Shown here: in pieces, positions 5,780 through 26,797 of the stretch
How positions within the stretch are numbered: the first letter of the stretch is position 1
How the letters are laid out: each line of letters opens with the position of its first letter
IMG/VR virus record: IMGVR_UViG_3300020043_005973
Location: 1 to 28,711 of that record
DNA from: a virus
Lineage: Duplodnaviria; Caudoviricetes
Direction: 5' to 3' (one strand)
Length of the DNA: 28,711 bases
Program-made: the position numbers and the translations under genes
The notes under the pieces: model-generated
Told to the model about the DNA's origin: nothing
Database searches by the model: none
What the model saw: the letters and a program-made list of their open reading frames with translations, nothing else

Positions 5780-5989
5780 TTACATTTTTTCTCTTTCCAA
5801 TTCTTCATCTGTTAAAATTGATTTAGCGTCATTGTTGGATGTTAGGGACGCCATAGTATTCTTCAAGTGGATTAAATATAAGTCGTGAATCCTCGCTCGT
5901 TGAAGTGAGTTCATTGTGCTTTCTGTTCCCTTGTTCCAATCTGTATTGAATATTAAATTCATCTCTGAATCTGTAATCTGGTTCTTCAT
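5780..5989 (-). CDS. Possible hypothetical protein overlapping the 3' end of the nuclease gene
   Basis: ATG start; TAA-T-ATG coupling to the next gene; 161-nt overlap with 5829..6476. Confidence 0.35.
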   Translation of the reverse strand: MKNQITDSEMNLIFNTDWNKGTESTMNSLQRARIHDLYLIHLKNTMASLTSNNDAKSILTDEELEREKM

Positions 5990-6476
5990 CTTTGAATATT
6001 TTAAATTTGTGTTTGAATTTGTCTCTTGGAATCAAATAACCTTTTGACAATTTGTCATCTCCTCCTTCTTTCTCTTCGAATCTTTTTTGACTGTGTGAAT
6101 TCTCTTCGATTATTTCTCTTAATTCTTTCGTTGGAATAATCCAAATCTCATCCATCAATGTTAAAATAATAACCCAATAGTCAGCAAGTGTTGTTCTTAT
6201 ACCAGAATTCTTTCCCTTACTTTCGAATTCAATAAACAATGTATTGTATGGATCAGGTGGTACTGTAATATTTCTATAATGTCTTTCATCATGAGAAAAG
6301 AAATCACCTTTTATTTCAAATGTAATCCATTCTTCATTTTTAATTATTGAAAGATCAAACCATCCATCTTGCCTAAATGTAACCTCTTTTATATTTTTAC
6401 TATTTCTTAATAACCAATTAGCAAATCTTAATTCTTGCTTATTGCCTTTCTTTAAATCTTTAATGAATTTATTCAT
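5829..6476 (-). CDS. PD-(D/E)XK family nuclease-like protein
   Basis: GNKQE, WFDL, FEIKGD, LFIEFES, SGIRTTLADYW and SKGYLIP match a phage restriction-endonuclease-fold family. Confidence 0.75.
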   Translation of the reverse strand: MNKFIKDLKKGNKQELRFANWLLRNSKNIKEVTFRQDGWFDLSIIKNEEWITFEIKGDFFSHDERHYRNITVPPDPYNTLFIEFESKGKNSGIRTTLADYWVIILTLMDEIWIIPTKELREIIEENSHSQKRFEEKEGGDDKLSKGYLIPRDKFKHKFKIFKDEEPDYRFRDEFNIQYRLEQGNRKHNELTSTSEDSRLIFNPLEEYYGVPNIQQ

Positions 6477-6751: not shown

Positions 6752-7186
6752 ATGAGTAGACCTTTCATAGAAAGAAAAAGTCCCACTGGTGAAGACGGCA
6801 TGAGGGAATGCAGGGGATGTAACAAGAGGAAGACACTAAACTTTTTTTATAAGTCAGGAAATTATGTGGATGGGTATTCTTACTTGTGCAGAAGATGTTT
6901 CACTGACAGGAAAAATGGTGTTAAGGAATTTAAATTACCAAAGAAGGAAAACATCAAATCAACCAAAGATGACATGGCTAAAATGACCGTATGTTCCAAA
7001 CAGGACTACATGGACATGTATACATTCTTTGAGAAGATTGGTTATGACATTACAAAAAACATCTCACAACAATTCTGTGAGAAACATGATCTCAAATACA
7101 GAGACAGAAGACAACAAGACATTTCATTATACACACATGATGGCAAAAAAAATCCCCTCCATAGAAGTATGAAGGGGAAACTATAA
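6752..7186 (+). CDS. Zinc-ribbon protein (CxxC...CxxC), the only credible plus-strand gene
   Basis: CRGCNKRKTLNFFYK...DGYSYLCRRC resembles the N-terminal Zn ribbons of phage HNH/EndoVII-associated proteins; no HNH motif follows. Confidence 0.7.
   Translation: MSRPFIERKSPTGEDGMRECRGCNKRKTLNFFYKSGNYVDGYSYLCRRCFTDRKNGVKEFKLPKKENIKSTKDDMAKMTVCSKQDYMDMYTFFEKIGYDITKNISQQFCEKHDLKYRDRRQQDISLYTHDGKKNPLHRSMKGKL
7145..7178 (-). terminator. Rho-independent terminator for the lipoprotein operon, overlapping the end of the plus-strand gene
   Basis: TCCCCTTCATA-cttc-TATGGAGGGGA followed by U8 on the minus strand. Confidence 0.8.
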
Positions 7187-12034: not shown

Positions 12035-14704
12035 TTATAAAGCGTAAGTAATTTTCATTATTCCACTACCTCCGTTTCCACCAACTCCCGCTGTTCCAAC
12101 TGCTCCACCTCCACCATTTCCTGTGTTTGCAGATCCATTTGCTCCATTACCAACTCCACCTGAACATCCATAACTACCACCACCAATAGAATAACCTGGT
12201 TGATTATTTGATGATCCACCCTGTCCTCCTGCGGCACCACTCTGTCCATTATTACCTTGACCTGCCGTTCCTAACCCTCCATTTCCTGAAACTCCACAAG
12301 AGTTTCTTGAATTACCTCCACCACCGTTTCCACCATCAGAACCATTTTGTGCTGTGTTGTTTGAAAAACCTGCCGCTCCACCTCCACCACCAATTGCAGT
12401 GAATGTTAAGAATGTTGAATTTGAACCATTAGATCCTGCTACACCAGTTCCACTTCCTCCATTACCACCATTACCAATTGTAACAGTTCCACCAGTTGTG
12501 ATTGTAAATGCTGTGAAGATTTGACCTCCGCCACCTCCACCACCACCGGCTCCACCTGAATTACCACCACCGCCACCACCACCGGCACCGGCTACTAATA
12601 ATAATTCAACTGATCCACCTTGAATAACTGTTAAAGTTCCTCCTGATGTAAATGTATGTGTTCTGAATCCACCGGCATCGGTCACAGTACCACCACTTAA
12701 AATAACTTTTGGTTGAGTAGGGCTCGGAGTATTTGTTTGTGTGATCGTTTGCGTTGGAGTCATCGTGTTAGTTGGAGTAACACTCGGAGTTGGAGTTACT
12801 GTTTGTGATGCAGTTTGAGTTGGAGTTGCGGTTTGTGTTGCACTCACACTTGGAGTTGGAGTTGCAGTTTGACTTGCAGTAATACTTGGCGTTGGAGTAT
12901 TCGTCTGACTTGCAGTAATACTTGGAGTTGGGGTTGAAGTCCTCGTTGGAGTCATCGTGTTAGTTGGAGTAACACTTGGAGTGGGGGTAGGCGTAACTAA
13001 CCATTGAGAATATAACCACTTATTTTCAAGTTGTGTTCTAACAACATCAATAGCAACTTGATTAAGAACACGATCAAATACCAATATTTCCATAACCTCT
13101 GAAAGAGCCAAGAATTGTGATGTGGATCCCGATGGACCACCGACAGCAATTGATGTTATTGTGGTTGATGTTGTTCCTGTTTGCTTGGTTGTTAATGTAA
13201 CACCGTTTAACTGAACTTGTGAATTACCATTCGTTGTACCAGTTACAACACCCAAGAATAATCCTGATGATCTCGAAATCGTGTCACCTGAATTTTGTTC
13301 TAAATTTACAGACCAGTTGTCAGGAACAGCACCAACATAAACTCTGTCAGTTCCACCTCCCTGATTTTGTGAATATAAATAATAATTTGAATCGAAAACT
13401 GGCGAAGAAGTTGGACCATCCATTGAGAATGCAAACCCTTCGGATTCATCTCTACTAATACCAGCAACAAACATATATGTATAACCTGTGTCAGAGAATG
13501 AAATACCTGAAACAGACATAAATGTACCACCTGTTGAATTGATTCCATTGAACGAAACGCAATTGATTCCTGTCACTTGTGGGTTCAATGTAGATGCAGT
13601 ATAAACAGGTTGATTAACAGAATTTGATTGTATTAAATTATAACCATAAGGTCCTTTGTCGTTCCATTGAGAAACTTTGTTGTTGACATCTTTTGTTATT
13701 GTTGATGTGTCTGATGCATCAATCCAAAATCTCAATCCCAAATATGGCGGAGTAACACTCGGAGTAGGTGTCATCGTCATTGTCTGACTCGCAGTAATAC
13801 TCGGAGTTGGAGTCATCGTGTTAGTCGGAGTTGCTGTCGAAGTGCTTGTTTGCGTTGGAGTGGCAGTAGGAGTGCTCGAAACAGTCAAAGTTAATGTTGT
13901 TGTTGTGGTCGGAGTGGCAGTTTGCGTTGGAGTTGCAGTTTGTGTGTTAGTAGGGGTGTTACTCGGAGTTTGAGTCGGAGTGCTTGTAGATGTTTTAGTT
14001 GGAGTTGCAGTTTGGGTTGGTGTGTTTGTATTAGTTGGCGTGACAGTTTGACTCGCAGTAATACTTGGAGTTGGAGTCATCGTGTTAGTTGGAGTTGCAG
14101 TTTGAGTTGGAGTGCTTGTAGATGTTTTGGTTGGTGTTGCGGTCTGCGTTGGAGTTTTTGTTTGAGTGTTAGTTGGAGTCACCGTAGCAGTATTACTCGG
14201 AGTTTGCGTTGGAGTGCTCGTATTAGTTGGAGTTATAGTGGGGGTGGGAGTAACTGATGCTGTAACACTCGGAGTTGGTGAAGGCGGATTTAATTCACCA
14301 GGTGCAAAGATTATATTTGAGTTGTCCTCATCAGGAGAAATATACTCAATGTAATAATCATTTGTTGTATTGGCAGACATTGCGATTAATAACGCAAGAC
14401 CTGACTCAACTTTATTATAAGCGAGAGCAGGATTTAAGTTTGTTGATCCTGAAAACTGTTCATAGATTCCATAAATGTATTGTCCCTCATATGGGAATGC
14501 AATTTCACCAATACCTTGACCTTCAATAAATTCAAATTCATCATAACGAACTTGATGTGTTGAAATGTTAGGTAGAATAAAAGTAACTCTTTCCTTACTC
14601 ATTTTATGAGTGAAAGAAAATAACCATTCAGGATTCGCAAGTTCTGCGTTCTGTGAAACGGTTGTTATTATTTTATTTAATTGATTTGTTTTAAGTAGAA
14701 TCAT
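12035..14704 (-). CDS. Neck/head-closure-like domain fused to Thr/Pro stalks, a LamG-like domain and a glycine-rich domain
   Basis: ~140-aa N-terminal domain ([10 protein letters not shown]...[10 protein letters not shown]...VESG); two TP-repeat tracts; FWIDASD...VSQWNDK...EILVFDRVL LamG-like fold; [10 protein letters not shown]...[10 protein letters not shown]...[10 protein letters not shown] Gly-rich domain. ATG 14704 preferred because the GTG at 14722 lies in a hairpin. Confidence 0.75.
12715..13000 (-). repeat. Thr/Pro/Ser coding repeat tract ([20 protein letters not shown])
   Basis: Recurrent GGAGT/TGGAGTCATCGTGTTAGTTGGAG units on the plus strand. Confidence 0.9.
13750..14285 (-). repeat. 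Thr/Pro/Ser coding repeat tract
   Basis: Recurrent [19 protein letters not shown] and [17 protein letters not shown] units. Confidence 0.9.
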
Positions 14705-14717
14705 GTGCGTAAAAATA

Positions 14718-14747
14718 ATCACAAGGGAAAGTTAATCCCCTTGTGAT
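14718..14747 (-). terminator. Hairpin/terminator after the tail tube gene
   Basis: 10-bp stem ATCACAAGGG...CCCTTGTGAT followed by TATTTTT on the minus strand. Confidence 0.7.
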
Positions 14748-14762
14748 GTATATTATTTTTTA

Positions 14763-15287
14763 TTACTGAACAGTAATACCAGCCGCAGCCGCAGAAAGAG
14801 ATGGTGAAACCTCATTCATTGGATTTGGTTCAAGGTATTGTAAAGTTATGTTATAACCTTGCTGATCTCCAAGAGCCTTACCAGTAACAGAACTACCAGC
14901 ACTTACATACATACCGTATGTTTGTCCCAAGTAGAAGTATTGTCCTATATTGTCTTCCATAACCACAGAAAGTTTCGGTGATTGTGCCAAAGTTTTAAGG
15001 ATGTTTCTCTTGTCTTGATCAAGTTTGTTGAAGTAAAGAACTAACTCACCTGTATAGAATACTGTTCCGTTTTCTAATGAAGCGTTTACAGTCTCTGTAA
15101 ATTGAGATGAAGTTCTAATCAATTCAAACTTGTAGTAAGTACCAGTACCTGAAATTTGAGTAATGGTGTCACCAGTTGATTGTGTTAAAGAAGTAATGTT
15201 GTCGAAGTCAGTCATCCAAACTGTTTGAACGCCACCAACTACATCTCTACATCCTAACGCAATTCCTGAATTTAAATTACAAGCCAT
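14763..15287 (-). CDS. Major tail (tube) protein
   Basis: MAC-L-SGIALGCRD-VGGV, ASLENGTVFY, TGKALGDQQGY-ITL...EP; 174 aa; follows the capsid gene. Confidence 0.75.
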   Translation of the reverse strand: MACNLNSGIALGCRDVVGGVQTVWMTDFDNITSLTQSTGDTITQISGTGTYYKFELIRTSSQFTETVNASLENGTVFYTGELVLYFNKLDQDKRNILKTLAQSPKLSVVMEDNIGQYFYLGQTYGMYVSAGSSVTGKALGDQQGYNITLQYLEPNPMNEVSPSLSAAAAGITVQ

Positions 15288-15329: not shown

Positions 15330-15355
15330 GTGAGAGGTATATTTCAACCTCTCAC
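15330..15355 (-). terminator. Hairpin after the spliced capsid stop codon
   Basis: 9-bp stem GTGAGAGGT/ACCTCTCAC a few nt after TAA 15364..15362; short U tract. Confidence 0.65.
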
Positions 15356-15361
15356 AATTAA

Positions 15362-16589
15362 TTATGACAATCCGTTTGTAACAAAGAATTGTGGGAATGC
15401 GATTGCAGTTCCTAATTTCCAATTCACAGCCATTCTTACCTCTTGGACAGAGTTTTTGTTTTTAACTACTGAGGTTGTTTACCCTCAATTTCACCACTTT
15501 CCTTTTTAACTTATATGTGGTGTTCAGACTATATCATCACCTTGCGGTGTCGGATGCTCGTGTCGGTTTCATTGGTGTTCTACCTGTGTACCGTTAGTCG
15601 TTGAACCTTCCTGATGTCCCCATCAGGCTCGGCTGCTGATTGTCTTGTTAAAGAGTTTCCAGCAATTCTTCCGATTTTACAAGACCTCCAAGTTGTAATT
15701 TCTTGATTGTTAAGTCTTGTGACCACCACATTCTGTAAGAATCTTCGTCAGACATTAAGTCTGTTCCTACTAAGAAATATTGTTGTGCTGATCCTGCGAT
15801 TAAGTTTGATCCGTTAAGACCAGGAACACCAACAACTTTGATGTTTGTTTGTGGATGGAATACTTCATAAACTTGACCTAATGTTGGTTCACTGAAATGG
15901 AAGTTGTTCACATTTCTGATTGCAACTAAATAACATTTGAATTGAGCCTGACTCATAAAGATTACAAGATCTTCTCTACCATAAATGTTTCTGTCGAAAG
16001 CATTGATGATGTTGTCAACTTGTGCAAGAACATTGTATGCTTGTTGAACTGTTGAAGAACCTGTTACAGAACATAATGCTGTTTGACCAGTTAATTTAAC
16101 AACACCTGATGTGTTTGCAAGTAATTCTTTGAAACCAGAGAATGATGAAGTTGCACTTGATGCACCCCATAACAAATCTTCGTTATAACGCTTGATTTGT
16201 TTTGTTTGTAAGTCAACAATCGCTTGTTCGAAAGGAACATTCTCATTGTATGAACCAGCATTTAAATACTGACCAAGCCACAGCGAGTTGAGTTCTTGCA
16301 GACATAATGATTGGTTTACTTTTAACGCTTGAACTGTTAATGGAGCAACTGTAAATGTTACATCACCAGCGTCTGACCATCCACAAGTTGTACCTGTTTG
16401 AACAGAAAGAGTTTCAGAAAGTAAATTCACATTCATTGTCCCCTTAATTCCCGGAACAACATTACAATACTTCATTGTTTGTGGAGTAAGAACTGCTTCT
16501 GAAATGATGTCAGAATTCAATTGATCCACATAAGCACTCAACCCACCTAAATCGTAGTTGAAAGCCATTTTTGAAAGATTTTTTTTCAT
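15362..16589 (-). CDS. Major capsid protein, split by an intron: join(16589..15713, 15447..15362), 320 aa
   Basis: Follows protease and scaffold, with HK97-like size. Splicing gives ...RMWWSQD-F-QEVRMAVNWKLGTAIAFPQFFVTNGLS*, a plausible capsid C-terminus in place of the intron-derived LTIKKLQ...ETL. Confidence 0.9.
15448..15712 (-). ncRNA. Group I self-splicing intron, 265 nt, subgroup IA-like, no homing endonuclease ORF
   Basis: P motif AAUUGCUGGAAA, Q AAUCAGCAG, R GUUCAACGACUA, S GAUGAUAUAGUCU. P1 ACAAGACU/GGUCUUGU has U-G at the 5' splice site; P10 CUUGGA/UCCAAG; terminal G at 15448. Confidence 0.95.
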
Positions 16590-16612: not shown

Positions 16613-17623
16613 TTATTTTTGAGACATAGCCTCTCTTAATCTTCTGAATTGATCTAAACGATCCACATCAGAAAAATTTTGTGTTATGGTTTTTTGGTTA
16701 TAAACCTTTTCACCTGCTGGTTCCTTTGAGAATTTCTTAAATGATCCATCAAGTTCAGTTTGTTTTTGTGCGATTGCATCGATTTTGTTTTCAAGTTTCT
16801 TTAATGCTTGAGAAAAGATTTCAGCGATTTCAACAGCGGTCATCATCTCTTCTTCATCTTCTGTTTCTTCAACATTAGATCTTTCAGTGATTTTGCCATC
16901 TTTGACAATTACTCTAATCTTAACTTCATTACCTTCTGAATCTTTTAACTCAATTTGGTGCTCTCCGTCTGGTGCTGGTGTCTTCTCTCCGTCTTTAACA
17001 ACATCGATTGTTTCACCCACATCAAAAGTTGGGGATTCCAAAATTGCTCCATCGTATGATTTCGCTTCAACGAATTTTCCTGCTGCTTTGTCCGCATCTG
17101 ATTTTGATTGAACACCCATAATTTCTCCACCTACAATAGAAATAACTTTTCCATTTTCAGTTTCGTAACTACCATCAGCAAGTGCTGAAAGGGTTCCGTC
17201 ATAACCGACTTCCTTAGCCATCGTTCCCACTGCTGGTTCTTCTGTGCTAATTCTAATCATCTTGCCGTCTTTCAATTTAACATCAGCGAATTTTTCAGAC
17301 ATTGTTTCGTCTTTGATGTCCGCTTCCTTCTTTTTGTCTTCGATTTTTTCGTCTTCGGTTTTTTCCATCTCCATGTCGCCCATTTTGATTTTTGCAACCT
17401 TGCCGTCTTCATCAACTTCAATTTCAGAACCGTCATCGAGTTTGTGTGTTCCCTGCGGTGCAGGAATCATACCTTCCTCCGTAGACACATAAATTGGTGC
17501 TCCGACTTCCAAATCACCATCAATTTTTACAGGGATCCCTTGTTCAGTTTTCGCCTCATAAAATGATTGTGGAGTAAGACCCAACACTTTCATTATTTTG
17601 CCTATTGCTTGTTTACTATTCAT
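16613..17623 (-). CDS. Capsid scaffolding protein
   Basis: Between protease and capsid genes; acidic; three internal repeats (VG..I.V...G..PAP.G.H.L.DG..I.V..G.I); C-terminal coiled coil. Confidence 0.75.
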   Translation of the reverse strand: MNSKQAIGKIMKVLGLTPQSFYEAKTEQGIPVKIDGDLEVGAPIYVSTEEGMIPAPQGTHKLDDGSEIEVDEDGKVAKIKMGDMEMEKTEDEKIEDKKKEADIKDETMSEKFADVKLKDGKMIRISTEEPAVGTMAKEVGYDGTLSALADGSYETENGKVISIVGGEIMGVQSKSDADKAAGKFVEAKSYDGAILESPTFDVGETIDVVKDGEKTPAPDGEHQIELKDSEGNEVKIRVIVKDGKITERSNVEETEDEEEMMTAVEIAEIFSQALKKLENKIDAIAQKQTELDGSFKKFSKEPAGEKVYNQKTITQNFSDVDRLDQFRRLREAMSQK

Positions 17624-21726: not shown

Positions 21727-23244
21727 TTACCCTAAAAAACATGTTGAATATGTGGTACAAGAACTTCCTTGAATCCAAGTATAAGGATCACAAGTAACTT
21801 CTAATCCACCCTGAACACAAATAGGTGTTTGGTATGCTCCACCTTGTTTTACACAAATACATGCGGTATAAGTTCCATCACCATTGTCTAAAACAGGTAG
21901 AGATTGAATTAATTCTGTTTCAACACTTGCAGTTCCACATAATGCATACCTAACATATAAATCATTTGGAACTGTTGTATATGTTAAACAATAACATAAA
22001 CAATTTGCTTCACCTGATGGACTCGGAGTTTGTGTTTGCGTTGGTGTTACATTAAGTGTTGCGCTTGGACTCGGAGTTTGCGTTGGTGTTGAACCGATCG
22101 TCGCACTCGGCGTTGCTGTTTGTGTCATAGTTGGAGTGGGGCTCGGAGTCAATGGAATAACACCAGTAGGACATTCAAAAGTATTACAATTTCCACCGTA
22201 TATTGTTGGTTCCGGCATTCCTGTATAATTGAATATTTGAGCAACACCCATAGTATATTGAATACATCTATACCTTGTTCCATTTGTAGTGAATACCTCA
22301 TTAATCAAAGTTCCGAAACAGTTGTTATATTCTATTGAAGCAAATGATTCTTCACTGCTTCCTGTAACAGTAATCTCCATACAAACATTACTATTAGTAC
22401 AAGCGGTAGGGGTGGGAGTCATCGTTGGAGTTCTTGTCATCGTTTGAGATGGAGTTTGCGTTGGTGTTGAACCAATGGTCGAACTCGGAGTTTGTGTTTG
22501 AGTTGAAGTTGGGGTGGCAGTTTGTGTTCGAGTTAAAGTTGGGGTGGCACTTGGAGTAATTATTGGTGGACAATTAACATAAGTTAATGTTGCTAAACCT
22601 GAATTTCTCGATGGACCTTCTGCTGGGTATACAAATCCATTATAAGTAAATCCTGTATTGAATACGGCATCAATACCCAAAGAACCTGATCCTTCTCCAC
22701 AATCATTTCTTGCACCAGCCGTTAAACTATATGTAACATATGCCCCACCACCTGCGTTATTAGGGTAATAAATAACAGAGTGTCCCGTTGTTTCACCTGT
22801 GAAAAATGCGTATGAATTACCACTGAACGGTGAACATTCAATATAGAAGAATTCAGGTGTCCCTCCCGTTGCAATATATGCTGGTGATTGAGGAGAATAT
22901 TTATAATATTGTGTAAGACCTGATGATGCTCCTGTAAATTGAATATAAATCCTTTGACATACTGGCGGAGTTGGGCTCGGAGTCATAGTTTGCGTCGGAG
23001 TTCTCGTGGTAGTAACTGATGGAGTTAAACTTATGGTTGGAGTATTCGATGGAGTGACACTTGGTGTTGGACACATTCCTCCAATACTAAAATAATCACA
23101 TAGAATTATTGGTCGATCTATGTCCATACAAATTGAATCACCATAGTTTAAATAAAAGAAACCTGAAACCCCTTGGCATGTTGTTCCTGAAAGTTCTTTT
23201 GAACCTGAAAATTCATCATTATTTGTGTAGACAATACAATTCAT
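21727..23244 (-). CDS. Putative virion appendage protein: four Cys-rich modules joined by three Thr/Pro stalks
   Basis: GTTCQG, YNNCFG and YALCG modules separated by TPTQT repeats; lies in the tail operon. Confidence 0.7.
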   Translation of the reverse strand: MNCIVYTNNDEFSGSKELSGTTCQGVSGFFYLNYGDSICMDIDRPIILCDYFSIGGMCPTPSVTPSNTPTISLTPSVTTTRTPTQTMTPSPTPPVCQRIYIQFTGASSGLTQYYKYSPQSPAYIATGGTPEFFYIECSPFSGNSYAFFTGETTGHSVIYYPNNAGGGAYVTYSLTAGARNDCGEGSGSLGIDAVFNTGFTYNGFVYPAEGPSRNSGLATLTYVNCPPIITPSATPTLTRTQTATPTSTQTQTPSSTIGSTPTQTPSQTMTRTPTMTPTPTACTNSNVCMEITVTGSSEESFASIEYNNCFGTLINEVFTTNGTRYRCIQYTMGVAQIFNYTGMPEPTIYGGNCNTFECPTGVIPLTPSPTPTMTQTATPSATIGSTPTQTPSPSATLNVTPTQTQTPSPSGEANCLCYCLTYTTVPNDLYVRYALCGTASVETELIQSLPVLDNGDGTYTACICVKQGGAYQTPICVQGGLEVTCDPYTWIQGSSCTTYSTCFLG

Positions 23245-23257
23245 AATCTAAATAATT

Positions 23258-26200
23258 TTATATGGTACAAACGAAATTACAATTCTTGCTTGCTCCAACT
23301 GTTGTTAATATTAATCCTGGTCCTGATGGCGCTGAACCTGTAATTTGGTAAACATAACCACTTGGGTATAATTCAGAATAGAAAGTTCCAACATTTACAG
23401 ATGATCCTGTCGGGAATGCTACAACAACATTAGAAGCAACATAAGAACAACCAGGGTAATTACATGTATACTCATCAGCATAATACAAATCGAAACTCGT
23501 TGGAGTAGAACTCGGGGTTGGTGTTGAAGTCGGTGTAGCCAATATTGTTGTTGAGGTGGGGGTTGGAGACAAACCAGGAGTGGGAGTTTGCGTCGGAGTT
23601 CTCGTGGGAGTTGGAGTGACACAACTGTCAGCACATAATTGTCCCCTAACAATTGGACCATCACCACTTACTGTTCCTTCATTAGCACCAATACAAGGAA
23701 TTGTATAGAACTCACCTTGACTAACAAATGCATCTGAAACAACTCCATCACAATCTCTCCATACTAATAGACCTGAACTATTTGCTGGTCCAAATGTATA
23801 TTCATAACATTTAATACAAGAACAAGCCGCACATGTAGCGTGACTACTAACCTCTGTGTAATCTGTTTCAATTGTAAAGTATGGTGTGATTCCTGAAACA
23901 CAATATTCTGTAAATGAGATCGGACTATAAACTTTATGAACTAATCCTAATGTTTCAAGAGATGAGTTTGTTGAGTTAAAATATATTTCTGTTGAAGTGT
24001 TACAAACAACTCCTCTATAAACGAAATACCTGTCATCACCTGGCTCTTCTTGTATAAGATCCATTGATGTTCTTGCACTACATCCACAATCACTGAAAAC
24101 ATTTACAAGATTGTTTGTATAAGCAGATCCAATGAAGTATTGATTGTAAGTATAACCTGAATTATAACCTCCAATCTGAACATTGTAACAACCCAATGAA
24201 TTATTGTCTGTGTCATAAAGACTTACATAATTATTTGCGTAAGCGTAAAGATGGTAGTTAAGATCTGAATTGGAATGTAGTTCTGCACCACCAGCACAAG
24301 GTATTAGATCATAGTAGAGAACTCTATGACCAGGGTATTCCTTTGTTAATTTAATTAATTCAACATCACATATACTTGGTTCTGTAATGTTATAGTTAGT
24401 GATCTTATTGATTCTAAAATAAGTATTGTTGATTAGAATTTTTTCGTTCCATCTCAATTGTTGAATCTCTTGTGGGTATAAATAAATCTTACATGCGTAG
24501 ATCTTATTTTCTGCACTGATTAAATCATCAACATAAGGTTTGTAATAGATGTCATATAGATCTTCTGATTGGAATACAAATTCTGATGGTGTAATGTCAG
24601 TTCTGTCTTCCCCTCTAAAATTACAATAGTGGGAGAATCCTGTATAGGCAAATGGGTATGTTGTAAATCTGTTTAGATTGTTAAATCTGTCTTGTTGTAG
24701 TCCATCCATATACCAGTATTGGAATGGTGATCCAAAGAATGTTCCACCACAAGTTGTACCTGTTGATGTAACAGAAAATACAGGGTATGGAAATAATACA
24801 TAAGGTGCTCTCAATGATGTTGGATCTCCACAACTATTCACTGTATTAGATCCTACTGATGCATTAAAGTTTTGTTGTATTCCATCACAATCGTCATAAT
24901 AAAATGTTGCAGCAGTATTGGTTGTAAATGTCCAACCTGAACTACAAATAGTTGTCCCTGTTTCTCCACTTATTCCAAGAAATCCGTAGTTGTCAACTGG
25001 TAATGTTGGTCCTCTGAATATTAATTTGGGTAATACCTTGAAGGGAACGAATGTTTGTTCTGATTGACCATCCTTGTCGACTGTTTTAAGTTTCGACATG
25101 GATCCCAATGTTAATAAGGGAACATATGCGTTCTGTATTGTTATGTCGATCGGTGATGAGAATTGGTAATCGAATTTTGTGATCGTGTCTTTATACTCCA
25201 AACCTAATTTGAATTTGTCTGTCCCAAATGTTCTGTTGGTTTGTGTTTTAAAGTCTTGGTTTGCATAATCCTGATCGGTACGGAATTCGTATTGTAATGT
25301 TCCGTTCAATAAAGATGTTGTTGGGTATATGGATTGTAGTTGAGAGAAATCAACTTTTGTTGTCCAATCTAATACAGGTCCCTTTCCAATATAATCAACG
25401 ATCGGTTCAACAATCAATGATTTTGGTTTGTCGGGATTGGGAACAATAACAAGGTTAAAATACTTGTTGATCGATGTAATGAAATCAAGTTGAGAATAAT
25501 CATTGTTAGGGAATTCAAGAGCATAATCAACTGTTGACCCCGATGGAATAATTCTTGGACCACTTAATATTTCCGCACTAAAATTTGTTATATTAACATA
25601 CTCACCTGCAAAAATAAATGACACATTGGATTCCCCTGTGAATATAAAGGCTTGTGTTACATCAACGGTTGTTGTTCCTGAACAATAATTTGATGCTAAT
25701 AATGGTACTGTTGAAACACCATCATCAAAATACAAATACAAATAAGGTGGAACTGTAAAGAAGTTGTCACAAGTATTTGTCGGAGTTACTGTGAATTGTA
25801 ATCTCCATGTATAAGTTCCTTCGAACTCTGGTATTGTTCTTATGGTTGTTGAGTTTGCAGAAAATCCAAGTGAGTTACAAGTAACACCTGTTGAGGGGTT
25901 TGTGTATACACCAGTGAAGGTTGGTCCAATAAAATCATTTATGTATTTGTAACAAGGGATGATTGCGTTTCTTGGGTATATGGTTTCATCCAAATATTTC
26001 ATTGGCATAAAGAAGTGTTCAAAATAACTTGTGTTGAAAAAGTCAGATTGAATTTCATAACCAGCATCACGACAAATTGCTTCGTATAATGCTTTAACCT
26101 GAATGGTTGGCTTAAAGTAATAGTTGTTTACAGGAGTGTTTACATTGTCAAAAAATCCTGGTTGTGGATTATAACTTATTGTTCCACCTGAATTGACTGT

Positions 26201-26797
26201 TGGTGTGAATTGAACCAGTGGTGAGACTGCTGCGTTTACTGTTGTCCCTGTTAAATACTCATAACCAATATTGTATAATCCCCATAATGTTGATCCTGAT
26301 TGGTAAGAATAATTTGTTGATCCTGTTAGGTTAAACAAGTTGGGATCGATCTGTGATTCAAGTATAACATTCTGTGTGAATGGATGTGTTAAACCAGAAA
26401 GATCTGTGTTGAATAAAAACTTGTCACCAATGTTTGCTGCAAGGTCCCCAATTTGATTATAAAATGTTGTTTGGTATATGATCTCATCATTAGCAATAGA
26501 CACCCCATTTAGTCTTATATGACCTTGTAATATTTCATAACCATCCCAAAGTAATACTGCATCGAATTTATTGTTCGGATCGAAGTCTAATGGTATTGAG
26601 TTTAGATCATAGAAGAAGTTGAATATTTCATTGTTTCTCTGTGAACCAGGAACAGAGAATGCTTTCGAGAATGCTGAATTCTTTTTTGTGATGTCTTGTA
26701 GTTCTGCGAATGACAGAGACAACAATACAGGTTCATCTTTGTAGAGATCAAGGAATTTATAAACACCAGAAACTTCTGTTCTAATCTGTAACGCCAT
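23258..26797 (-). CDS. Large tail tip/baseplate hub-like protein with Cys-rich and TP-repeat extensions
   Basis: LDLYKDEP..LS...QDI.K.NS.FSK.F.VPG...NN.IF start, QLDFI.SI.K.FNL and I.INN.YFRINKI..Y...CDVELIK, typical of Bacteroidota siphophage tail proteins. Confidence 0.75.
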   Translation of the reverse strand: MALQIRTEVSGVYKFLDLYKDEPVLLSLSFAELQDITKKNSAFSKAFSVPGSQRNNEIFNFFYDLNSIPLDFDPNNKFDAVLLWDGYEILQGHIRLNGVSIANDEIIYQTTFYNQIGDLAANIGDKFLFNTDLSGLTHPFTQNVILESQIDPNLFNLTGSTNYSYQSGSTLWGLYNIGYEYLTGTTVNAAVSPLVQFTPTVNSGGTISYNPQPGFFDNVNTPVNNYYFKPTIQVKALYEAICRDAGYEIQSDFFNTSYFEHFFMPMKYLDETIYPRNAIIPCYKYINDFIGPTFTGVYTNPSTGVTCNSLGFSANSTTIRTIPEFEGTYTWRLQFTVTPTNTCDNFFTVPPYLYLYFDDGVSTVPLLASNYCSGTTTVDVTQAFIFTGESNVSFIFAGEYVNITNFSAEILSGPRIIPSGSTVDYALEFPNNDYSQLDFITSINKYFNLVIVPNPDKPKSLIVEPIVDYIGKGPVLDWTTKVDFSQLQSIYPTTSLLNGTLQYEFRTDQDYANQDFKTQTNRTFGTDKFKLGLEYKDTITKFDYQFSSPIDITIQNAYVPLLTLGSMSKLKTVDKDGQSEQTFVPFKVLPKLIFRGPTLPVDNYGFLGISGETGTTICSSGWTFTTNTAATFYYDDCDGIQQNFNASVGSNTVNSCGDPTSLRAPYVLFPYPVFSVTSTGTTCGGTFFGSPFQYWYMDGLQQDRFNNLNRFTTYPFAYTGFSHYCNFRGEDRTDITPSEFVFQSEDLYDIYYKPYVDDLISAENKIYACKIYLYPQEIQQLRWNEKILINNTYFRINKITNYNITEPSICDVELIKLTKEYPGHRVLYYDLIPCAGGAELHSNSDLNYHLYAYANNYVSLYDTDNNSLGCYNVQIGGYNSGYTYNQYFIGSAYTNNLVNVFSDCGCSARTSMDLIQEEPGDDRYFVYRGVVCNTSTEIYFNSTNSSLETLGLVHKVYSPISFTEYCVSGITPYFTIETDYTEVSSHATCAACSCIKCYEYTFGPANSSGLLVWRDCDGVVSDAFVSQGEFYTIPCIGANEGTVSGDGPIVRGQLCADSCVTPTPTRTPTQTPTPGLSPTPTSTTILATPTSTPTPSSTPTSFDLYYADEYTCNYPGCSYVASNVVVAFPTGSSVNVGTFYSELYPSGYVYQITGSAPSGPGLILTTVGASKNCNFVCTI

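Follow-up and report, generated by a model that had tools for sequence, protein, structure and literature searches.

The major capsid gene of the phage described here is very probably interrupted by a group I intron that lacks an open reading frame (ORF), the arrangement that best explains the data, and joining the two exons restores an HK97-fold capsid protein. The window, that is the whole stretch of DNA that was analysed, comprises an entire virus record of 28,711 bases with an estimated completeness of 88%, and the gene lies on its minus strand. Capsid exon 1 (15713-16589, 877 nt, 292 codons plus one base) was delimited from its ORF and from homologues, and exon 2 (15362-15447, the last 28 codons and the stop) from homologues; the intervening 265 nt (15448-15712), which we call site A, are IA-like, end in G and are defined by Rfam model RF00028, by covariation and by an exact skip in the DNA of relatives. 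RF00028 matches 15747-15504 on the minus strand with 58.5 bits (E 1.3e-12, gathering cut-off 50 bits), and this is the sole match above a gathering score anywhere in the window. When all candidate junctions were scored against intron-less homologues two tied, one base apart and within 3 points of the top, of which only 15712/15448 places a U before the intron and a G at its end; the same one-base ambiguity recurs in the skips seen in RNA and DNA contigs. The longest ATG-initiated ORF inside the 265 nt has 30 codons and no endonuclease ORF is present.

A preliminary description of this DNA had proposed a group I intron in the major capsid gene with these boundaries, a terminal G and no ORF, and had suggested a covariance-model search as a check. 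That search returned RF00028 above its cut-off, and together with the covariation and the homologue alignment it bears the proposal out, the junction scoring fixing both the coordinates and the G at 15448. By all sequence tests 15712-15448 is a class IA-like group I intron. Chance or assembly error is ruled out by the RF00028 match, the covariation, eight further contigs with an intron at site A and an independent intron-bearing contig in sequencing run X2.

With 16589-15713 and 15447-15362 joined, the frame stays open for 320 residues, and this product finds one uninterrupted match in 46 of 54 related viral loci (two of them ending early) and is split in the other 8; the best intron-less homologue is 91.7% identical. 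The unspliced ORF has 313 aa, with the exon 2 sequence replaced by 21 unrelated residues, and since plain ORF calling returns just this product the warning that automated annotation would give a wrong capsid C-terminus was justified. A capsid that truly ends in the read-through tail is ruled out by exon-2 coverage and by the homologues, which end in exon-2 sequence and in no case in the tail. In order to examine the fold we have used a structure model of L001, an intron-less homologue that shares 91.5% identity with the joined protein, computed from 142 sequences with a pLDDT of 89.6, for which Foldseek returned 358 matches at E 0.001 or better, including the HK97-fold capsids of T7, HK97, T5 and others with E from 5e-10 and TM 0.43-0.57. 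On the model of L001, rather than of the window's own joined protein, the gene product is an HK97-fold major capsid protein, and the capsid identity assigned earlier is confirmed by this fold and by a head module of terminase, portal and protease. A first capsid fold (22 rows, pLDDT 49.7), whose matches were also capsids, was too poor to use and is superseded by that of L001. Capsid Pfam families are matched by 8 of the 142 homologues; Pfam gave no match for exon 1, nor did a PDB sequence search with the capsid. In the L001 model exon 2 encodes a core strand, residues 295-308, with pLDDT 93-97, and this strand is covered in 142 of 142 distant homologues, Gly305 being present in 99%.

The window phage carries terminase, portal, prohead protease and tape-measure genes. 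Directly upstream of the capsid gene, with no nuclease gene in between, is an acidic protein of 336 aa (16613-17623, minus), likely the scaffolding protein from its position after the prohead protease. The gene that follows the capsid (14763-15287, minus, 174 aa) is intron-free in the window and possibly encodes the tail tube, the function that its Atlas look-alikes give at 0.84 (a lead only); its homologue in a second phage clade carries a sister intron. Hairpins lie just past the capsid stop (15330-15355) and past the next gene (14718-14747), the latter terminator-like and on the coding strand, and a promoter scan of the window showed no excess over shuffled sequence. Three large minus-strand proteins (12035-14722, 21727-23244 and 23258-26797) with long Thr-Pro-Thr repeat linkers and Cys-rich parts are probably tail or fibre proteins; Pfam gave a single glycine-rich match, in the first, and nothing more. 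An N6/N4 DNA methyltransferase gene (1977-2783, minus) lies directly upstream of the large terminase. The labels of public runs that share 23-46% of the window's words read freshwater, lake water or simply metagenome, and contigs aligned from freshwater and metagenome runs are ∼93-96% alike to the window. Among cultured phages the window capsid is matched only by Nonlabens phage P12024, at 24% across 54% of the protein and with the same local gene order, which weakly suggests a Bacteroidota host.

The intron region folds better than 200 of 200 shuffles (z -3.45). P1 (15679-15720, minus strand as for all helices) pairs the eight last exon bases, 15720-15713, with a guide at 15686-15679 through 8 bp that include a U-G pair at the splice site (shuffle p 0.001), while the adjoining guide strand 15687-15692 pairs with exon 2 bases 15447-15442 to form a P10 of 6 bp; the same strand has an alternative partner at 15706-15702, as an extension of P1. 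Synonymous changes in exon 2 are accompanied by changes of the P10 strand in three other site-A introns (L026, L144 and L230), suggesting that splicing is under selection. The core (15550-15674) consists of P3 (15674-15668 x 15556-15550), P4, P5, P6, P6a and a P7.1 insertion (15593-15564), from the fold and covariation. The G-C pair of P7 serves the guanosine site of group I introns, and P7 (15526-15601; 15601-15595 x 15531-15526, placed by fold and alignment) has both this pair and the bulged C. P8 (15549-15538) and the terminal P9 (15522-15492) and P9.1 (15488-15469; together 15469-15522) are again placed by fold and covariation. An alignment of 20 related introns shows pairing in 97.5% of its 920 cells, and in 19 of the 46 pairs both partners vary; none of 500 shuffles did as well, and slid controls pair at 28-44%. 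P3, P6 and P8 covary, and both-side changes were found in 3 of 6 pairs of P9, 5 of 6 of P9.1 and 1 of 3 outer pairs of P7.1; P4 and P7 are invariant in these 20 introns and so receive no covariation support.

The helices P3, P4, P5, P6a, P7, P7.1, P8, P9 and P9.1 of the preliminary description are present in the sequences it gave, as are P1 with its U-G pair and P10, and its statement that P2 is essentially absent agrees with the 4 nt between P1 and P3, in which no P2 helix fits. Its list needs amendment in that P3 is formed by 6 bp around one A-A mismatch, P6 (15633-15631 x 15607-15605) had been omitted and the P7.1 stem encloses a second hairpin. Class IA is defined by a helical insertion between P7 and P3, and subgroup IA2 (the T4/Twort type) by P7.1 and P7.2 hairpins side by side. 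The insertion at 15593-15564 is the single feature that carries the subgroup IA label proposed for the window intron, which has one P7.1 stem with a nested hairpin and by this layout does not belong to IA2. P7.1 and P7.2 are among the class features given in PMC3984707, the subgroup scheme is described in PMC11878797 as fitting phage introns poorly, and the IA3 alignment quoted in PMC6125680 spans 205-374 nt. The ribozyme, which had been called very compact, is indeed small but with 265 nt falls inside this IA3 range and is not unusually minimal.

From its sequence the site-A intron is predicted to splice itself out. By group I chemistry the guide would pair with the last eight exon bases as P1, free guanosine bound in P7 would cut after the U of the U-G pair, the 5' part of the guide would then pair with exon 2 as P10, and exon 1 would attack after the terminal G so as to restore Asp292-Phe293. 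Unspliced RNA would yield the 313-aa protein lacking the core strand, and because such a read-through protein would not be expected to assemble, the supply of capsid would depend on splicing.

Contigs that skip exactly 265 bases were found in two of four RNA runs (X15 and X20). We have rejected them as proof of splicing, the identical join existing as DNA in two of four runs (X1 and X4); with ∼5-6% of their bases different from the window, and with the exons joined in DNA too, the RNA contigs may derive from intron-less alleles. Nor does it count as evidence that RNA in X15-X17 leaves the intron uncovered. In DNA run X2 a contig crosses the region with the insert present, and with both the skip (X1, X4) and the insert (X2) seen in DNA the intron is optional among close strains. 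Site A carries an intron in 3 of the 52 loci that reach it, 49 being without; eight other contigs have it, and most relatives lack it, including strains ∼96% identical in exon 1. The list of the best 80 of 248 matches favours intron-less genes and was not used for frequencies.

That most relatives, the ∼96% identical strains among them, do without the intron argues against a regulatory switch tying capsid synthesis to GTP or growth state, or giving a second form of capsid with another C-terminus, and we consider a role of this kind most improbable. Hypotheses in this vein exist for phage introns (Discussion of PMC11878797), splicing of the S-PM2 psbA intron is reported to be light-dependent (PMC5931967), and in each of the six site-A introns inspected the read-through frame runs on for 21 codons. 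Yet this open frame overlaps the conserved P1-P4 RNA, which explains its conservation, in the sister introns of other sites a stop comes after 0-18 codons, and read-through would, on the structure model, replace the core strand. Degron-like tails, sought in the read-through products of 33 introns, were not seen.

Pattern scans combined with junction mapping gave 33 distinct introns of 246-287 nt with no ORF above 61 codons; the catalogue omits L334 and L336, whose 3' ends had been wrongly set, and L299, L337 and L342 are cut or unplaced. These introns occupy nine sites in two phage clades, eight in the capsid gene and one in the next gene, the capsids of the second clade being 24-34% identical to those of the window's. 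In the window clade the capsid sites are at approximately codons 45 (E), 105 (F), 120 (C), 220 (D), 293 (A, the window) and 297 (B); in the second clade they are at approximately codons 71 (G) and 97 (H) and at a site matching C, with site T in the next gene, the possible tail tube, at its codon 13. With respect to capsid conservation the sites are unremarkable (18th-81st percentile). Two-intron capsid genes occur in L166 (729-1329, minus; a 66-nt exon between the introns), L244/L279, L050, L049 and L335. The site T intron is found in L140, L151, L173, L218, L245 and L334, its frame stopping at the first intron codon.

Introns at A, B, C, G, H and T resemble that of the window. Those at D, E and F (L027:2336-2589, L042:3108-3357, L049:2771-3020, L049:3200-3467 and L054:2554-2808) have another P7 sequence, a P2, a P7.1 and a covarying group I core; RF00028 finds none of the class (7 introns at 6 loci) at E 0.1 or at its gathering score, and the covariance model built here scores them at 67-84 bits. 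At site F (L049:3200-3467, L291:1366-1632 and L298:1366-1632) the junction restores the frame and there is an extra hairpin at the 5' end, and P1 is not clean, its 3 bp not exceeding what shuffles give. Looser relatives of the D/E/F class are seen in terminase, tape-measure, dUTPase, polymerase and helicase genes of other phages.

A specific core pattern was found in 25 viral contigs, 22 of them with the match in the capsid or next gene, and in 11 metagenome contigs, 7 in those genes. In 50 whole records (1,069,225 bases) the model gave 22 matches, distributed over 19 records; the capsid gene accounts for 18 and the next gene for 4, and none falls elsewhere. With all 50 records chosen through the capsid gene and the 19 for their introns, this establishes absence elsewhere and not frequency. 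Among 70 further loci with looser relatives, 10 lie in other major head genes. In another phage group (L137, L150, L177, L160 and L194) introns sit at one site of a gene that is possibly a capsid gene, some with a LAGLIDADG ORF and some without, and in L160 and L194 another intron follows within a few codons. In L190 (1000-1330, minus) a very short ORF is interrupted by a related intron and followed by a nuclease-like gene; the joined ORF may resemble the PQQ precursor peptide PqqA.

Capsid and tail introns have been published before (PMC3706429, PMC7886860, PMC11878797), so that the rarity implied for them in the preliminary description was overstated. In Cluster J mycobacteriophages (Pope et al. 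2013, PMC3706429) the capsid intron of LittleE has 819 bp and a nuclease ORF, the tail intron of BAKA and Optimus has 265 bp and no ORF, the LittleE capsid and BAKA tail introns have 156 bp in common at 98%, and splicing was shown by RT-PCR and protein sequencing. As in the window, an intron there interrupts the major capsid gene, has a U before it and a G at its end and is optional among close relatives; in contrast, its splicing is demonstrated and the capsid intron bears an ORF, whereas the present family is ORF-less throughout and spread over nine sites. Among the 30 of 49 blastn matches listed there is no Cluster J phage. The closest studied intron in the same 30 is that of S-PM2 psbA (70.5% over 151 nt), which scores 109 bits with the model built here and, like the window intron, is ORF-less, lacks P2, has short P5 and P8 and carries a P7.1 insertion. 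It differs in its host gene, psbA, and in an adjoining nuclease gene, the window capsid having no such neighbour; it is reported to splice efficiently in infection (PMC5931967), and collaborative homing with the free-standing nuclease F-CphI has been described for it (PMC6083498).

A capsid gene with group I introns is also reported for crAss-like phages of the Delta and Zeta groups (Yutin et al. 2021, PMC7886860), hit repeatedly and with several introns per gene as here, and blastn relatives at 69% are present in cr1_1 and cr50_1 among the 30 of 49 matches listed. Those are large gut phages whose introns were found via endonuclease domains, unlike the ∼30-35 kb freshwater phages of this work, in which the introns have no ORFs. 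The orf142 gene of Staphylococcus phage Twort reportedly holds three ORF-less introns of subgroup IA2. It is the tail tube gene (PMC11878797), and with the capsid intron of lactococcal phage Tuc2009 (cited in PMC3706429) it provides, in other hosts, self-splicing introns in late structural genes (tail tube and capsid) like that of the window. PMC11878797 restates the view that split genes in phages belong for the most part to DNA metabolism; the available parts of PMC12350094 and PMC11835236 hold nothing on capsids, and in open-licence papers, as main texts without supplements such as Table S1 of PMC11878797, no literature on the window's phage clade or on this intron family was found.

On a quick capsid tree (95 rows, 8 of 126 loci having been dropped as incomplete) the site-A hosts are scattered among intron-less relatives; among the 17 intron-bearing rows there are 5 changes, 4 of them forced by starred branches, although such counts cannot separate gain from loss. 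The intron of the window is 92.6% alike to that of L276 in a host with 52% identity at four-fold silent sites, compared with 69-78% at these sites between the window and its nearest intron-less relatives; L276 groups with L261 on the host tree and yet its intron is 92.6-95.1% like those of the window and L026 and 83.7% like that of L261. At site E the introns of L042 and L335 are 100% identical with silent sites at 72%. Whole introns, loops included, agree to 99.3% and 100% between hosts whose silent sites agree to 76% and 72%, and other alleles of those same introns differ by 10-19%; strong purifying selection on cores inflates intron identity relative to silent sites and weakens this comparison as a test of lateral spread. 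Beyond ∼16 nt on the upstream side of the intron and ∼14 nt on the downstream side, the window has the codons of its own clade. The simplest reading of these sequences is lateral spread in which little neighbouring DNA travelled with the intron. An old intron inherited vertically with many precise losses, its conservation due to selection on the ribozyme and nothing else, would agree with the single clade of site-A cores, with a P10 tuned to the exon of each host, which takes time, and with change counts that are blind to the direction of change. We nevertheless hold it improbable, in that exact losses would be needed many times over (49 of 52 loci have no intron), loops are conserved as well as cores, and the intron of L276 departs from the host tree.

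On the core tree, where 13 of 17 inner branches are open, the site-A introns group together (100/100). Monophyly of the introns at a site is rejected for C (p-AU 0.006), G (0.0003) and H (0.0015) and not for T (p 0.36). The two introns of the L166 gene are sisters (90/97). The 5' guide always follows the site, and B and C introns share 89-93% of core and P9 with unrelated guides, a pattern compatible with gene conversion that exchanges cores, or with transposition that has occurred repeatedly. With site A forming one clade and T not rejected, core exchange holds for the sister introns only and not for site A. We consider the chances about even that the introns spread by DNA recombination between co-infecting relatives within the small patch of conserved sequence that surrounds the site, no nuclease of their own being involved, and that sister introns at other sites would swap cores by gene conversion with the site-specific guide retained. 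Lateral spread is hard to explain, however, because no driver has been found. As regards movement we favor plain recombination accompanied by core exchange, followed by homing driven by a nuclease and then by reverse splicing.

Homing driven by a nuclease, from a rare ORF-bearing allele or a free-standing gene and with the ORF-less forms as passengers or remnants, is in our estimation unlikely, although distant relatives often stand beside LAGLIDADG, HNH or GIY-YIG ORFs, ORF-bearing and ORF-less alleles share one site in the other phage group (L137, L177 and L160), and the closest studied intron, that of S-PM2 psbA, uses F-CphI (PMC6083498). Given the nuclease genes of more distant relatives, a rare nuclease-bearing donor may exist. 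Against this, all 33 catalogued introns of both clades are ORF-less with 246-287 nt, so that no internal endonuclease ORF marks them as homing introns, and no gene lies between the capsid and its neighbours. Pfam found neither a nuclease nor a reverse transcriptase among 77 ORFs of three complete intron-bearing genomes and 35 window ORFs; the 93-ORF scan covered 92 of 113 listed ORFs (known structural proteins and those already scanned being omitted) and one of 645 aa, leaving out other ORFs above 450 aa and genomes G004 and G005. In the window there is no free-standing endonuclease beside the capsid gene and no match to a nuclease family, in a record that is ∼88% complete and from which 12% may be missing. 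Two window ORFs were considered as helpers. The first (5829-6476, minus, 215 aa, phrog_13596 of unknown function) has a PD-(D/E)XK-like motif read by eye, is sporadic and is named by no family match; it does not fit the role, being found in 1 of 27 relatives, where it is broken by stops and the relative itself is intron-less. The second (6752-7186, plus, 144 aa), a zinc-finger ORF that is the sole long plus-strand gene, is weakly like the N-terminus of endonuclease VII; its comparison with F-CphI is not significant (E 0.22), and it occurs in 19 of 27 relatives whether or not introns are present.

An RNA route, in which the intron would reverse splice into abundant late mRNA at guide-matching sites, be copied by a host reverse transcriptase and recombine into the genome, strikes us as somewhat less likely again than homing. 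It would explain why only the capsid and next gene are hit, where all 22 model matches in the 50 records fall, and would be in keeping with the little flanking DNA carried along, the exon ends common to different sites (TGGAT at G and T, TCCGT at H and C) and the exon ends at D and E, one base apart with the guide changed to match. Related introns at two places of one gene are regarded in PMC3984707 as the best circumstantial evidence for such a route, direct proof of which is, according to that paper, lacking so far. Neither the 93 ORFs scanned with Pfam nor 19 window ORFs include a reverse transcriptase, and the like cores and unrelated guides of B and C are not given by reverse splicing alone.

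Capsid-gene introns that splice are already known, and what is added here is an ORF-less family with nine sites in two genes and probably exchangeable cores. Gene callers give a wrong capsid here and, because RF00028 misses the D/E/F class, genes holding those introns are mis-annotated silently. The family adds evidence that virion genes, and not DNA-metabolism genes alone, are regular homes of phage introns. Its pattern (nine sites, two genes, no nuclease, exchangeable cores), for which there is a precedent in the Cluster J phages, is in our view the part worth following, the more so as it supplies matched pairs, near-identical cores at different sites with known guides, that permit the movement of ORF-less introns to be tested. 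A doubtful reading, to which we give slightly less credence than to the RNA route itself, is that freshwater phages harbor a nuclease-free intron system made up of a guide and an exchangeable core, confined to the capsid and next gene, that moves by reverse splicing at five-base matches and by gene conversion. If true, this would constitute a natural, short and testable case of RNA-based group I intron transposition.
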